Of a DNA stretch of 10,206 nt, positions 1 to 5,715 are shown in pieces. The position numbers and the translations under genes were made by a program. Under the pieces are notes generated by a model. It saw only the letters and a program-made list of their open reading frames with translations, was not told the DNA's origin and did not search any database. This stretch comes from a virus (lineage: Duplodnaviria > Heunggongvirae > Uroviricota > Caudoviricetes): the IMG/VR virus record IMGVR_UViG_2698536672_000010; one strand, written 5' to 3'. Position 1 is the first letter of the stretch. Each line of letters begins with the position of its first letter.

Positions 1-348
1 AGTTACCGGAGTTGGTCCATCGAATTCGGGCATGTCAGGACCTTTTCTGATAGCTTTAGCCAGCTCCAGCGGGTCATCGTAAAGCCAGTCGCCAGTTTGT
101 GGGTGATTTGCTTCTGCAAGCTGCGCAGCCCATTCAAGACCATCTTTTTTACCTTGGAGATAATCAAGTGGCAACTCTTCATGATTACTTGCAGGTTCGG
201 CACTATCAGCTTCGCGCCGCTTCTGTAGCTCTGCTGCCATTGCTCTCACGACTTCAACTGGTGCCCTTGCAGCAAACTCTATGTTGGTGATCAGCTCATT
301 AAGATATTGCTCGCCTGGATACTGTTTCTTATCGGTTATAGTGGTCAT
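1..348 (-). CDS. Hypothetical phage protein, 3' end beyond the window edge (absent from the supplied ORF track)
   Basis: ATG at 348-346 on the minus strand with AAGGAGAG Shine-Dalgarno 5 nt upstream. Translation MTTITDKKQYPGEQYLNELITNIEFAARAPVEVVRAMAAELQKRREADSAEP... stays open to position 1, so the track (which needs a stop) omitted it. Starts 1 nt after the stop of the gene at 350-1078. No recognisable domain. Confidence 0.5.
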   Translation of the reverse strand, partial: MTTITDKKQYPGEQYLNELITNIEFAARAPVEVVRAMAAELQKRREADSAEPASNHEELPLDYLQGKKDGLEWAAQLAEANHPQTGDWLYDDPLELAKAIRKGPDMPEFDGPTPVT

Positions 349-2059: not shown

Positions 2060-2074
2060 TTACCTCTAAGGTAA
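2060..2074. promoter_or_regulatory. Operator-like palindrome A (TTACC-TCTAA-GGTAA), perfect arms
   Basis: Perfect 5-bp inverted arms with a 5-bp spacer. Sits at the predicted +1/leader of the 1712-2056 gene and overlaps its Shine-Dalgarno, so the right arm could partly be ribosome-binding sequence. Confidence 0.45.
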
Positions 2075-2120: not shown

Positions 2121-2137
2121 GTTACCTATTGGGTAAC
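2121..2137. promoter_or_regulatory. Operator-like palindrome B (GTTACC-TATTG-GGTAAC), perfect 6-bp arms
   Basis: Perfect inverted repeat read directly from the sequence. Centre lies about 62 bp upstream of the predicted start of the promoter at 2074-2102. Confidence 0.5.
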
Positions 2138-2173: not shown

Positions 2174-2974
2174 TTACTTGATAAATCCTGCTGCCTTTCC
2201 TCGCCTGTATTCCTCCATCAGCCACTGCGCCGGTGTTATTCCCCCCAGGGTGGCGGCGTTAGGCATGCACCCGAAACTTCGCCCTGGTGGATGGTAAACG
2301 TCTCTCCCTGTGTCCGGAGGTGTACTCATGGGTTCTGGCTTTGCCTGTATGCTGATCACCGGATCGGGTATCTGCTGTCCGGAAGCCACCTTTTTCGCCC
2401 AATCATCGAGCAACCTGCGCGCGTGTTTCTCAACCTCAATCTCGCTAAGCTGGCGCTGATACATTGCACGGCGGGTATCACATACGACCCAGTACATAAC
2501 CGGATGCCGCCACGGGAATCTTTCGGGACCACCAGGATATAAACTTTTTTCCTTGCTGTACCGGTGAAACTCCGCCATCACATCGTCAATGGTGACGCCA
2601 AGAACCATCTTGCTGTCTTTACACCACTTGATGAATTGCCCTGGCGACGGCCAGAACGGAGACTCACTGGCGCGAGCGTGGCGCATACCAGCAGAAACCT
2701 GTTCACGGGTTCGGATCCCACCTTCGGCAAACGCAGCAATCCACTGCTGTTTTGCAGCAACTTCCTGCTCTGGCGTCTTCAGGTTGGTTACCACTGCCGC
2801 CGGAAACAGTTGTTTCAGCTGTTTGAAAAGGGCATCAACAAGCCTCTCTGCTGACATGTTCACCACATTGTCATTGTTGACGTACTGATGCTCATAACCT
2901 GACATGCGAGAAAGGGCTTCTCCGTCACGGTTTTGTATCGCGGTAAAAACGTTGTTCACAAGAAATCCTCCCAT
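2174..2974 (-). CDS. P: Replication protein P homologue (lambda P-like DnaB helicase loader)
   Basis: Aligns by eye with lambda P as I recall it: window LFKQLKQLFPAAVV...QQWIAAFAEGGIRTREQVSAGMRHARASESPFWPSPGQFIKWCKD vs lambda FSQLLATFPASLAN...RRQWVLAFRENGITTMEQVNAGMRVARRQNRPFLPSPGQFVAWCRE. Likely true start is GTG at 2959 (GGAGGA 6 nt upstream), overlapping the O-like stop as GTGA; 2974 is the longest-ORF ATG. Confidence 0.85.
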   Translation of the reverse strand: MGGFLVNNVFTAIQNRDGEALSRMSGYEHQYVNNDNVVNMSAERLVDALFKQLKQLFPAAVVTNLKTPEQEVAAKQQWIAAFAEGGIRTREQVSAGMRHARASESPFWPSPGQFIKWCKDSKMVLGVTIDDVMAEFHRYSKEKSLYPGGPERFPWRHPVMYWVVCDTRRAMYQRQLSEIEVEKHARRLLDDWAKKVASGQQIPDPVISIQAKPEPMSTPPDTGRDVYHPPGRSFGCMPNAATLGGITPAQWLMEEYRRGKAAGFIK

Positions 2975-3771
2975 GCTTCAGGGCTGTTCCAGTGCGGAAC
3001 GTTGTTATCAGGTAATGTTGATTGCTTCTGTCTGCTAATCTGCAGCCGCCTTGCCAGCTTCTGCTCCCACTGTGCCTGATGGTATGCCTTACCCTCAGCC
3101 ATCCAGTAAATTCTGAACTCTGCAAGTTCCTGTGCCGTTGGCAGACTGTCCAGGTAGATCCCCTGCAATGAGCTTTTCCGAAGAAAGTCATCTGATGGCT
3201 GCCATTGTTCATGCATGACAAATTTGCCTAATTGCCCTGGCCCACCAGGAGGAACAAAGTTATTCATCACGGCGTTGTTTGCGCCGGGGTCATGAGGCAC
3301 AGAATCCCCGCTTTTTGTCCTGCTCTCCCTCTCTTGGTTAAATGACTGGTTATATGACTGGTTCTGGATCCCGTTTTTGGGATCATTCAACATCCCGTTT
3401 TTGGGATCATTCAACATCCCGTTTTTGGGTATATTCCCATTTTCGGTAACATTACCGTTTTCGGGTTCATTACCCCCTTCCCGGTTGCCTTTAATGTTCC
3501 CGTTTTTGGTTATATTAAGAGAGAAAACCCGCACTCTTTTCGTCGCTCCCTTTCTCTCTCCGGTATCTGAAATAAGCCCCATTTTCATGAGCGATATAAG
3601 CCCGGCCTGCACGGTTTTTTTATTCAGGCAAGTGTCTTTAACGAGGCGTTCTATGCTGGGGTAGCAGAGGTTATATTCATCGGCTCTGTCAGCCATCGAG
3701 AGCAGTATGAGCTTTAATGACGAGCTACCTGGATCTGTCTCCCAGGCCCAATCTGTTGCATGTCTGCTCAT
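2956..3771 (-). CDS. Replication initiator, O-like (winged-helix N-terminus, Asn-rich repetitive linker, C-terminal domain)
   Basis: 271-aa ORF immediately upstream of and coupled to the P homologue. GGAG Shine-Dalgarno 8 nt upstream of the ATG at 3771. N-terminus LKLILLSMADRADEYNLCYPSIERLVKDTCLNKKTVQAGLISLMKMGLISDTG looks like a winged-helix DNA-binding domain. Central linker is encoded by the iteron-like repeats. C-terminal region could be DnaT-like (uncertain recollection). Confidence 0.65.
   Translation of the reverse strand: MSRHATDWAWETDPGSSSLKLILLSMADRADEYNLCYPSIERLVKDTCLNKKTVQAGLISLMKMGLISDTGERKGATKRVRVFSLNITKNGNIKGNREGGNEPENGNVTENGNIPKNGMLNDPKNGMLNDPKNGIQNQSYNQSFNQERESRTKSGDSVPHDPGANNAVMNNFVPPGGPGQLGKFVMHEQWQPSDDFLRKSSLQGIYLDSLPTAQELAEFRIYWMAEGKAYHQAQWEQKLARRLQISRQKQSTLPDNNVPHWNSPEAWEDFL
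3340..3515. repeat. Iteron-like direct-repeat array inside the O-like gene (candidate replication origin)
   Basis: Core CC(C)GTTTT(T/C)GG occurs six times: 3370, 3394, 3418, 3436 (CCCATTTTCGG), 3455 and 3499. The first two copies are a perfect 24-bp tandem (CCCGTTTTTGGGATCATTCAACAT at 3370-3393 and 3394-3417). TGACTGGTT is also duplicated at 3342 and 3355. The repeats are in frame and encode the PKNGMLND linker. Confidence 0.55.
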
Positions 3772-4067: not shown

Positions 4068-4082
4068 TTACCTTTGAGGTAC
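4068..4082. promoter_or_regulatory. Operator-like palindrome C (TTACC-TTTGA-GGTAC), one mismatch
   Basis: Same family as A/B. Centre about 60 bp upstream of a candidate minus-strand promoter (TTGATC at plus 4045-4050, 17-nt spacer, CAAAAT at plus 4022-4027) that would drive the zinc-binding gene. Confidence 0.35.
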
Positions 4083-4090
4083 GAATAGAT

Positions 4091-4115
4091 ATGAAAAGAC
4101 CGCCGGGTGGCGGTC
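4091..4115 (-). terminator. Putative intrinsic terminator after the Cro-like gene
   Basis: Perfect hairpin GACCGCC-GGGT-GGCGGTC at 4098-4115. On the minus strand it is followed by TTTTCAT (plus-strand AAAA at 4094-4097). The T-run is short, so it may be a partial terminator or attenuator. Confidence 0.45.
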
Positions 4116-4137
4116 TACAGAGGGTTGTAGCTGGATA

Positions 4138-4368
4138 TCATGAGTAGAAGAAGTATGCCAGTTCTGCTTTTGAGCGCAGCCATTGTCTTGTTTTACAGGC
4201 TTTAAAAAGCCCATTCATCAATACTTTACCTGGCATTTTGCGCTTACCTGTTAAGTGAGTCTGGATATAGTGACTCGTCGTTCCGGCTTCCTGTGCGAAG
4301 GCTTCACGCTCATCCGGAGTAAGTGCAAGCCAGTGCTTTTTGAAATCGAAATGTCCGTTATCGCTCAT
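4138..4368 (-). CDS. Cro-like small HTH DNA-binding protein
   Basis: 76-aa ORF transcribed divergently from the CI-like repressor. Segment TPDEREAFAQEAGTTSHYIQTHLTGKRK has the pattern of a Cro/YdaS-type helix-turn-helix. First gene of the leftward replication operon. Confidence 0.6.
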   Translation of the reverse strand: MSDNGHFDFKKHWLALTPDEREAFAQEAGTTSHYIQTHLTGKRKMPGKVLMNGLFKACKTRQWLRSKAELAYFFYS

Positions 4369-4404
4369 AGCTATTGCCTGATATTTATTTCAGATAATAA
4401 ATAT

Positions 4405-4467
4405 TCACCCATAAGGTAACAAAAATCAAGGATAGTTACCTATGAGGTGCATTTACCTGTTGGGTAA
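4405..4467. promoter_or_regulatory. Tripartite operator region between the Cro-like and CI-like genes (palindromes D, E, F) with divergent promoters
   Basis: D 4405-4419 TCACC-CATAA-GGTAA (1 mismatch). E 4436-4450 TTACC-TATGA-GGTGC (2 mismatches). F 4453-4467 TTACC-TGTTG-GGTAA (perfect). Candidate minus-strand -35 TTGATT at plus 4424-4429, with D in its spacer/-10 region. Candidate plus-strand -35 elements TTGCTT (4470) and TTGAAT (4480) lie just right of F. Confidence 0.5.
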
Positions 4468-4522
4468 TATTGCTTTAAATTGAATCATCTACTGATTCAT
4501 ATATGAGGCGATTTTCCAGAAA

Positions 4523-5107
4523 ATGAAAAGTATCCAGGACGTCCGCAGGCAAAATCTCAACGACTTGATCGACCGTGAATTCAATGGTGTTCAGACGCGG
4601 ATGGCAGAAAAACTTGGAACTCAGGCAAATCTGGTAAACCGCTGGGCTCTTGGCAAGAAGGTTATCGGCGACCAGGTTGCGCGAAAAATTGAAGCTGCCG
4701 CCAATAAACCCCGTAACTGGCTTGATATCGATCGCTCGCTTTCTCAGGAAGGTTTTCAGCCTGTCGGCCCAAGCGACATTGGTCAGCTGGCGGCTCACAA
4801 CCTGGAACGCTGGATGAGCGAAAGCCGCGACCTTTCAACACAGGGAAAACTTCACCGCGCATCCGGCGTCGCCCAGGTGACAATCAGCCGCCTGTTAAAC
4901 AATGAGGTCAGCGTTTCCATTTCCACCCTGGAGAATGTTGCATCCGCATTCGGGCGTCACGGCTATGAATTACTGATTCACCCGCACGACCCTGCGACTA
5001 TCAACTATGACCGCTCGCGCTACGCATTGTTACCCGAAACAGAGAAGGCAAAGATCGAAAGTTACATTGAATTTGTCATCAGCCAGAACGAAAAAAACAA
5101 ACAATAA
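4523..5107 (+). CDS. CI-like prophage repressor with two XRE-type HTH domains and no LexA-like peptidase domain
   Basis: 194-aa ORF. First HTH around GVQTRMAEKLGTQANLVNRWALGKK, second around GKLHRASGVAQVTISRLLNNEVSVSISTLENVASAFG. No S24 Ser/Lys dyad motif seen. Divergent from the Cro-like gene and followed by a strong terminator. Confidence 0.7.
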   Translation: MKSIQDVRRQNLNDLIDREFNGVQTRMAEKLGTQANLVNRWALGKKVIGDQVARKIEAAANKPRNWLDIDRSLSQEGFQPVGPSDIGQLAAHNLERWMSESRDLSTQGKLHRASGVAQVTISRLLNNEVSVSISTLENVASAFGRHGYELLIHPHDPATINYDRSRYALLPETEKAKIESYIEFVISQNEKNKQ

Positions 5108-5127: not shown

Positions 5128-5153
5128 AAGCCGCCTCATGGCGGCTTTTTTAT
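5128..5153 (+). terminator. Rho-independent terminator after the repressor gene
   Basis: Hairpin AAGCCGCC-TCAT-GGCGGCTT at 5128-5147 followed by TTTTTTATT, located 21 nt after the repressor stop. Confidence 0.7.
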
Positions 5154-5164
5154 TGCCAGCAAGA

Positions 5165-5241
5165 TTACCTTATGGGTGATTTTTTTAACTCATATCTATT
5201 GACATCAAACCAGATACGCATAATCATTACCTCAACGGTAA
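5165..5241 (+). promoter_or_regulatory. Early-left (PL-like) promoter of the recombination operon, flanked by palindromes G and H
   Basis: G 5165-5179 TTACC-TTATG-GGTGA (1 mismatch). -35 TTGACA at 5199-5204. -10 is ambiguous: CATAAT at 5219-5224 (14-nt spacer) or AATCAT at 5222-5227 (17-nt spacer). H 5227-5241 TTACC-TCAAC-GGTAA (perfect) lies at the predicted +1. Confidence 0.45.
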
Positions 5242-5415: not shown

Positions 5416-5715
5416 ATGAACGTTAATCAGCAGAAAAATCTTCAAAAAATCATGCAGGCATTTGACAAGGACTACCACCTGTCAGAACAGCTATATGACC
5501 GACAAGTTGAACTGATTGAGAGCATCCGACTTCATCAACTGTCATCAACTTTCGACGTTGTAACAGGCAAAGGCGTTCGTCAGGAAGTACTGGAGGCTGC
5601 TAAAGACAGCCCTGAGTTCGAAGAACTGATGGATGCCTATCGGCGAGAGGCAATGGCAATTATCGCCCGCTGGGATCTGGCGGATCAGCTTGATGGACAG
5701 AAGGACGCGGCATGA
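5416..5715 (+). CDS. Hypothetical protein (99 aa), coupled upstream of the exonuclease
   Basis: ATG at 5416 with GGGAGGG Shine-Dalgarno 6 nt upstream; the track's 5401 start lies inside that Shine-Dalgarno. Stop overlaps the exonuclease start as ATGA. Acidic C-terminus; no domain recognised. Confidence 0.55.
   Translation: MNVNQQKNLQKIMQAFDKDYHLSEQLYDRQVELIESIRLHQLSSTFDVVTGKGVRQEVLEAAKDSPEFEELMDAYRREAMAIIARWDLADQLDGQKDAA

Follow-up and report, generated by a model that had tools for sequence, protein, structure and literature searches.

The window, by which we mean the whole stretch of 10,206 nucleotides that was analysed, covers the early/lysogeny region of a podovirus prophage of the phiV10/epsilon15 type (Uetakevirus) and runs in reverse orientation relative to the phiV10 record. 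The immunity repressor gene rep (4523..5107, + strand; ORF call and homology) encodes 194 amino acids plus a stop codon. A divergent gene in the cro position (4138..4368, - strand) encodes a 76-aa homolog of phiV10 gp41 and epsilon15 gp39, which matches phrog_35 'transcriptional repressor' (E 5.6e-13). To the left of the cro-position gene were located, in order, Ead/Ea22-like, DUF1064, lambda-P-like replication and DnaT-like replication genes. To the right of rep were two small ORFs and genes for a PD-(D/E)XK exonuclease, RecT, AlpA, a PerC-like protein and an MT-A70 methylase, with a P4-type integrase on the - strand at the right end of the gene order. The same gene order was observed in phiV10, epsilon15 and SPC32H, and a near-identical prophage in E. 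coli 04-00955 is located at the 3' end of guaA. Among the complete E. coli genomes, the best match to the full length of the window reached 95% coverage with 97.7% identity. An earlier note on this DNA had placed the repressor in the CI position, which was borne out; the gene lies between divergent early promoters.

The product of rep has already been described. It differs at a single position (S187N) from phiV10 gp40, for which Perry et al. 2009 is reportedly the source paper, and shares 99.5% identity with the annotated repressors of ZX5 (ORF21), PAS61, phiv142-3, TL-2011b and others. The annotation of the repressor in the phiV10 record already mentions 'two helix-turn-helix motifs'. The rep region was found in 561 of 5,426 complete E. 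coli genomes, and homologs of rep are spread across Enterobacteriaceae. In the study of vB_EcoP_ZX5 by Li et al. 2022, overexpression of ORF21 abolished free phage and lowered the transcripts of endolysin and holin by over 99.9% (PMC9782041). One phage record, that of Escherichia phage BP9 (PP488543.1, 138 kb), carries a full-length Rep with 99.5% identity that is labelled 'antidote protein VapI'; this record may represent a chimeric assembly or an acquired fragment. The HigA/VapI-type antitoxin function implied by such a label was rejected on the basis of the synteny, the operators and the ZX5 data.

Profiles and a structural model divided the protein into consecutive modules. Residues 1-72 (4523..4738, + strand) constitute an N-terminal XRE/Cro-type HTH, whose role as the DNA-binding domain is taken from PMC9986798. 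They are followed by a flexible and little conserved linker (residues 73-88, 4739..4786, + strand; pLDDT about 46, 6% identity to the Rep of phage SPC32H) and by a second, HTH_3-like bundle (residues 89-152, 4787..4978, + strand) that shares homology with the middle dimerisation domain (MDD) of SPC32H Rep. A C-terminal tail (residues 153-194, 4979..5104, + strand) is homologous to the CAD/TetDloop of SPC32H Rep, a module for tetramerisation and Ant binding; the roles of the bundle and the tail are taken from the literature. Two stretches of the product matched HTH_3 in Pfam (E 1.2e-9, best at residues 106-147, with the canonical signature GVAQVTISRLLNNE in the middle domain). Residues 104-144 also matched HTH_26, and residues 21-61 gave a YdaS/Cro-type HTH match at E 3e-4, which is below the cutoff of that family. 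Residues 1-76 and 92-152 were matched separately by PHROG repressor families. In the AlphaFold2 model, which was built from an alignment containing 28 homologs and had a mean pLDDT of 78.7, two helical bundles (residues 4-59 and 85-151) are separated by a disordered linker (73-82), and the C-terminal segment (164-193) closes with a long helix at 172-193, the pLDDT of the tail being 55-78.

Searches of the rep product with Pfam, NCBIfam and PHROGs gave no S24 or LexA-type peptidase, and neither an Ala-Gly nor a Cys-Gly dipeptide occurs anywhere in its 194 residues. The description in the earlier note, two XRE-type HTH segments and no LexA/S24 motif, therefore agrees with Pfam, PHROGs, NCBIfam and the AlphaFold2 model. 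That note had overlooked the last ~40 residues, which conservation among relatives marks as a separate module; I160, Y162, D163, A168, L170, P171, K175, K177, S180 and F184 are invariant there in the aligned relatives. A recent internal duplication of the HTH domain was rejected, since BLASTP gave no in-register alignment between the N-terminal and the middle domains.

The Rep/Ant system of Salmonella phage SPC32H is reportedly the subject of Kim & Ryu 2013 (J Virol) and Kim et al. 2016 (PNAS), and PDB entries 5D4Z and 5D50 contain its Rep alone and together with the antirepressor Ant, respectively. The domain search and structure prediction for which the earlier note had called returned homology to this Rep instead of an S24 peptidase. 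Residues 1-190 of the rep product matched residues 2-197 of 5D50 chain A 'Repressor' at E 4.1e-42, and residues 89-190 matched 5D4Z (SPC32H Rep fragment 92-198) at E 4.2e-20 (phmmer, PDB). The same two entries were the best Foldseek matches of the AlphaFold2 model (for the 92-198 fragment, TM 0.78 with an rmsd of 3.1 A across 100 columns). Identity to SPC32H Rep is ~41% overall. By module, it is highest in the N-terminal domain (53%) and the tail (45%), lower in the middle domain (34%) and only 6% in the linker.

The TTACC-N5-GGTAA site named in the earlier note proved to be real. With at most one mismatch allowed, eight sites were found in the window against 0.18 expected, starting at positions 149, 2060, 2122, 4068, 4405, 4453, 5165 and 5227, and none of 200 shuffles reached eight. 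The rep/cro intergenic region contains three sites with spacings of 31 and 17 bp, an arrangement shared with SPC32H and epsilon15. They are the operator TCACCCATAAGGTAA (4405..4419, 1 mismatch), which overlaps the -35 and spacer of a leftward promoter-like site of the cro-position gene; the operator-like TTACCTATGAGGTGC (4436..4450, 2 mismatches), located where SPC32H and epsilon15 have their middle site; and the perfect operator TTACCTGTTGGGTAA (4453..4467), 56 bp upstream of the rep ATG. The PR-like promoter for the cro-position gene, TTGTTA-17-TATTAT (4394..4422, - strand), is purely a consensus-scan prediction. The same holds for the PL-like promoter TTGACA-17-AATCAT (5199..5227, + strand), which is predicted to drive a 50-aa ORF, a phrog_856 ORF, the exonuclease gene, recT and the genes that follow. 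The PL-like promoter is flanked by two operators at a distance of exactly 62 bp: TTACCTTATGGGTGA (5165..5179, 1 mismatch) lies upstream of the -35 of this rightward early promoter, and the perfect TTACCTCAACGGTAA (5227..5241) abuts its -10. An intrinsic-terminator-like hairpin with a T-run lies just 3' of rep (5128..5147, + strand), where phiV10 also has an annotated terminator.

The other sites were located away from this region. The operator-like TTACCTTTGAGGTAC (4068..4082, 1 mismatch) lies downstream of the terminator (4097-4116) of the cro-position gene, and the operator-like TTACCTTGGAGATAA (149..163) also has 1 mismatch. The perfect operator TTACCTCTAAGGTAA (2060..2074) is immediately upstream of the start of the DUF1064 gene (2056, - strand), and another perfect operator, TTACCTATTGGGTAA (2122..2136), follows at a distance of 62 bp; the stretch between these two, before the DUF1064 gene, is weaker promoter-like. 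Regions 2060-2136 and 5165-5241 represent two promoter-operator modules that can be aligned in register, with ATCTATTGA common to the -35 region. In the phiV10 genome, 14 such operators were found against 0.65 expected, and the same half-sites in the same arrangement as in the window were present in epsilon15 and SPC32H. The 62-bp operator spacing recurs in phiV10 and also in epsilon15 and SPC32H, whose Rep is only ~41% identical. One Rep tetramer would bridge each 62-bp operator pair, a distance of ~6 helical turns.

Between 4420 and 4522 the consensus scan detected no promoter on the + strand, so the rep promoter is probably weak or activated, and the nearest GAGG in 4468-4522 is 13 nt from the rep ATG. 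Considering both observations, transcription of rep may resemble that of lambda cI from PRM, its promoter being weak or activated and its Shine-Dalgarno sequence poor or missing.

The mechanism of SPC32H Rep is given here from secondary summaries and PDB entry names. According to PMC9986798, this protein consists of an N-terminal DNA-binding domain, the MDD and a C-terminal CAD, and the CAD serves both tetramer formation and binding of the antirepressor Ant. The tetramer binds DNA through its N-terminal domains and the dimer binds weakly, as summarised from Kim et al. 2016 in PMC9638917 and PMC9986798. PMC9638917 adds that the pairs of DNA-binding domains reading a palindrome come from different dimers, and that Ant, itself a tetramer, binds two Rep dimers and disrupts the tetramer of Rep.

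Full-length homology to the solved Rep, the three-module layout and the operators at divergent early promoters all match an SPC32H-type Rep. We therefore consider, with a probability of roughly 0.85, that the rep product is an ortholog of SPC32H Rep serving as repressor in a phiV10/epsilon15-type (Uetakevirus) prophage, and that it is composed of three modules, controlled by Ant and free of self-cleavage. SPC32H Rep/Ant, to which epsilon15 gp38 and gp19 are near-identical, resembles the system in full-length homology (E 4e-42), in the three modules, in the gene position between divergent early promoters, in the TTACC-N5-GGTAA arrangement including the 62-bp PL pair, and in the Ant of the relatives, which is 84-88% identical and likewise has a LexA box and an operator. 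It differs in that its Rep is ~41% identical with an unrelated linker, and in that a Bro-N::Ant gene has been added next to ant in the E. coli lineage. We infer that the rep product, despite the 41% identity, behaves as SPC32H Rep does. The basic N-terminal HTH of Rep would recognise the palindromic TTACC-N5-GGTAA operators, the second HTH-like bundle would act as the dimerisation domain, and the C-terminal tail would form tetramers and offer the docking site for Ant. The Rep tetramer would present two pairs of N-terminal domains and could thereby clamp the operator pairs around the early promoters. Upon DNA damage, cleavage of LexA would derepress the small ant gene outside the window, and Ant would then bind the C-terminal region of Rep and take the tetramer off the DNA, with Rep itself remaining uncut.

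No Ant homolog was found in the window by tblastn (best E-value 3.9), and no antirepressor domain was detected with Pfam in 15 window ORFs, a scan that excluded the integrase and the small ORF at 8638-8952; the earlier note had likewise seen no antirepressor gene there. A perfect LexA box (CTGT-N8-ACAG) is also absent from the window, and the six one-mismatch sites against 3.5 expected are at chance level. The antirepressor was found in relatives, where ant is located ~28 kb from rep, between tail genes and the tailspike gene, a map position that accounts for its absence from the window. In the near-identical prophage of E. coli 04-00955, ant encodes 85 aa between the tail and tailspike genes (locus L003, 34999-35256, - strand), and its product is 88% identical to 5D50 chain E 'Anti-repressor protein' (E 4.1e-47). 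This ant is preceded by the Rep operator TTACCTTTCAGGTAA and by a near-consensus LexA box, TACTGTATAAATATACAGT, whose end is 22 bp upstream of the ATG. Both elements are likewise located in front of ant in ZX5, phiV10, epsilon15 and SPC32H. Ant was present in 35 of the 36 phage records with a full-length Rep homolog, the only exception being the 138-kb record of Escherichia phage BP9 (PP488543.1), and among the complete E. coli genomes 561 carried rep and 529 carried ant. The prophage of the window thus presumably carries ant as well. The suggestion in the earlier note that induction may depend on an antirepressor is supported by the homology to SPC32H Rep/Ant and by the LexA-boxed ant of the relatives, and these data support that Rep would be switched off by a small, SOS-controlled antirepressor encoded outside the window.

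Relatives of this prophage respond to DNA damage. Mitomycin C increased the titre of ZX5 lysogens from about 1e7 to 1e9 PFU/mL (PMC9782041), and a DNA-damaging microcin gave 21- to 47-fold induction of prophages of the phiV10 species (bioRxiv 10.64898/2026.05.26.727859). SPC32H itself was placed by a review among the prophages in which LexA cleavage permits antirepressor synthesis (PMC7380047). Because ant is preceded by a LexA box and the relatives respond to mitomycin C and to the microcin, induction would still be SOS-dependent. The earlier proposal that induction proceeds without RecA-stimulated autocleavage is thus right as far as the repressor is concerned, which has no S24 domain; it does not extend to induction being independent of RecA and SOS, as ant is LexA-boxed. 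With ant under LexA, mitomycin C inducibility therefore cannot separate self-cleavage from an antirepressor mechanism.

Gene-context analysis around ant revealed a second protein related to Ant. Just downstream of ant lies a gene for a Bro-N protein (E. coli 04-00955, L003 34000-34686, - strand; ZX5 ORF4, L006 1078-1773, - strand), whose C-terminal domain (residues ~147-225) is homologous to the whole SPC32H Ant. This Ant-like domain is 40-42% identical to the stand-alone Ant, both belong to phrog_450, and the E. coli 04-00955 Bro-N protein matched 5D50 chain E at E 1.8e-13. The Ant-like C-terminal domain therefore means that these E. coli phages have two Ant-domain proteins. In phiV10, gp23 (L001 19646-20230, - strand) is truncated after only ~31 residues of the Ant-like domain. 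Directly past the stop codon of ant lies a perfect Rep operator, TTACCTTTGCGGTAA, which coincides in part with a promoter-like site (L003 34955-34996, - strand; L006 ~2040-2085, - strand), and a terminator-like hairpin lies between this operator and the Bro-N gene. The two operators flanking ant in phiV10 are 380 bp apart.

It is conceivable that the main inducer in the E. coli lineage is this Bro-N protein, the annotated anti-repressor of ZX5, and not the small SPC32H-type Ant. The 'anti-repressor' tested in the ZX5 study was indeed the Bro-N protein ORF4, not the small Ant, which was left as a 'hypothetical protein', and overexpression of ORF4 brought the prophage titre down from 1e9 to 1e6 and reduced rep transcripts by 75% (PMC9782041); the Ant-homologous domain is present in ORF4 as well as in the corresponding protein of the near-identical prophage. 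We nevertheless consider such a primary role unlikely, as the stand-alone Ant resembles the characterised protein much more closely (88% identity) and its gene directly follows the LexA box, whereas the Bro-N gene sits behind a terminator-like hairpin, is truncated in phiV10 and is absent from epsilon15 and SPC32H. The fusion and the small Ant are not mutually exclusive, and Bro-N::Ant may provide a second input. The Ant proteins of the E. coli and Salmonella phages (loci L002, L003 and L005) share 84-88% identity, and Rep is ~41% identical between them (window, L002 and L004) with the same operator half-sites. Cross-induction or cross-immunity between E. coli and Salmonella phages may therefore occur, considering that Ant and the half-sites are conserved at a Rep identity of ~41%. 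A tentative and rather doubtful extension is that phiV10-type phages of E. coli might have two antirepressor inputs, the unannotated LexA-controlled Ant of 85 aa and a Bro-N::Ant behind a promoter bearing a Rep operator, with possible cross-induction or cross-immunity across genera.

The earlier note had further proposed that a single Rep monomer with tandem HTH domains could read both arms of the TTACC-N5-GGTAA site. This idea draws on the Pfam match of the middle domain to HTH_3 with its canonical signature, and on the linker, whose ~16 flexible residues could span 10 bp. The half-sites, however, are identical inverted repeats, which call for two copies of one recognition module, yet the two HTH domains are dissimilar in register and differ in their helix-3 residues. 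The N-terminal domain is basic (pI 10.3), whereas the middle domain is neutral (pI 7.0). Helix 3 of the N-terminal domain (NLVNRW) is invariant, with N36, L37, R40 and W41 fixed in relatives that have the same half-site, and helix 3 of the middle domain varies among relatives that keep the same operator (QVTISRLL vs PATVNRIM). The second HTH is thus neither basic nor equipped with a conserved recognition helix, as DNA contact by a tandem-HTH protein would demand. In the crystal structures of SPC32H Rep, the homologous domain is the dimer interface, and the N-terminal domains of the tetramer bind DNA, according to PMC9986798 and PMC9638917. Taken together, these observations argue against the claim of the earlier note and make reading of both arms by one monomer highly improbable.

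That Rep has a cryptic self-cleavage or protease sensitivity (RecA-stimulated or by a host protease) with Ant as an accessory is extremely improbable, for although the DNA-damage inducibility of relatives, taken alone, is compatible with cleavage, Pfam, NCBIfam and PHROGs detected no S24 domain, the AG and CG dipeptides are lacking, modules homologous to SPC32H Rep cover all 194 residues, and the LexA-boxed ant explains the SOS inducibility.

The SPC32H-type reading places rep beside several known systems. Coliphage 186 Tum and the antirepressors of Salmonella Gifsy prophages follow the same logic, a likeness in working only, in which LexA represses the gene for a small protein and this protein inactivates a non-cleavable repressor (Lemire et al. 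2011, PMC3121763; PMC7380047). Lambda CI, P22 C2 and LexA, which combine an HTH with S24, share with Rep the genetic position, the XRE-type N-terminal domain and cooperative binding to multiple operators, whereas the rep product has no S24 domain, no cleavage-site dipeptide and another oligomerisation module. Rco of the Bacillus plasmid pLS20 also has an N-terminal XRE domain, is countered by an antirepressor (Rap), and carries a C-terminal p53-like tetramerisation domain (TetDloop) for DNA looping (PMC9986798). In contrast to Rep, Rco has no HTH-like dimerisation domain in the middle, and it belongs to an unrelated element in an unrelated host.

The mechanism family is known, and nothing in the outline is new. 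With the mechanism structurally solved in a relative, the significance of the assignment beyond annotation is small. The sources on phiV10 gp40 and ZX5 ORF21, which are essentially the same protein as the rep product, do not link it to the SPC32H Rep/Ant mechanism. Ant has no assigned Pfam or NCBIfam family and was mostly labelled 'hypothetical protein' in the E. coli genome and phage records examined, so automated pipelines keep missing the antirepressor and will go on reporting a 'repressor without cleavage domain, no antirepressor'. The sole experimental paper on the E. coli repressor gave the antirepressor role to the Bro-N protein, which carries an Ant-like domain (PMC9782041).

Two further features were observed among the neighbouring genes. 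The exonuclease (5712-6533) and RecT (6530-7411) are separate, overlapping ORFs both here and in ZX5, and the phiV10 annotation gives a single RecE-RecT fusion of 1761 bp (gp37). Inside the DnaT-like gene (2956-3771, - strand), tandem repeats were found at 3335-3474, with a 24-bp unit present in 2.6 copies at 100% identity; the gene also contains 12-bp and 18-bp arrays and encodes the repeated peptide PKNGMLND. These repeats are probably origin iterons, like those in the lambda O gene.
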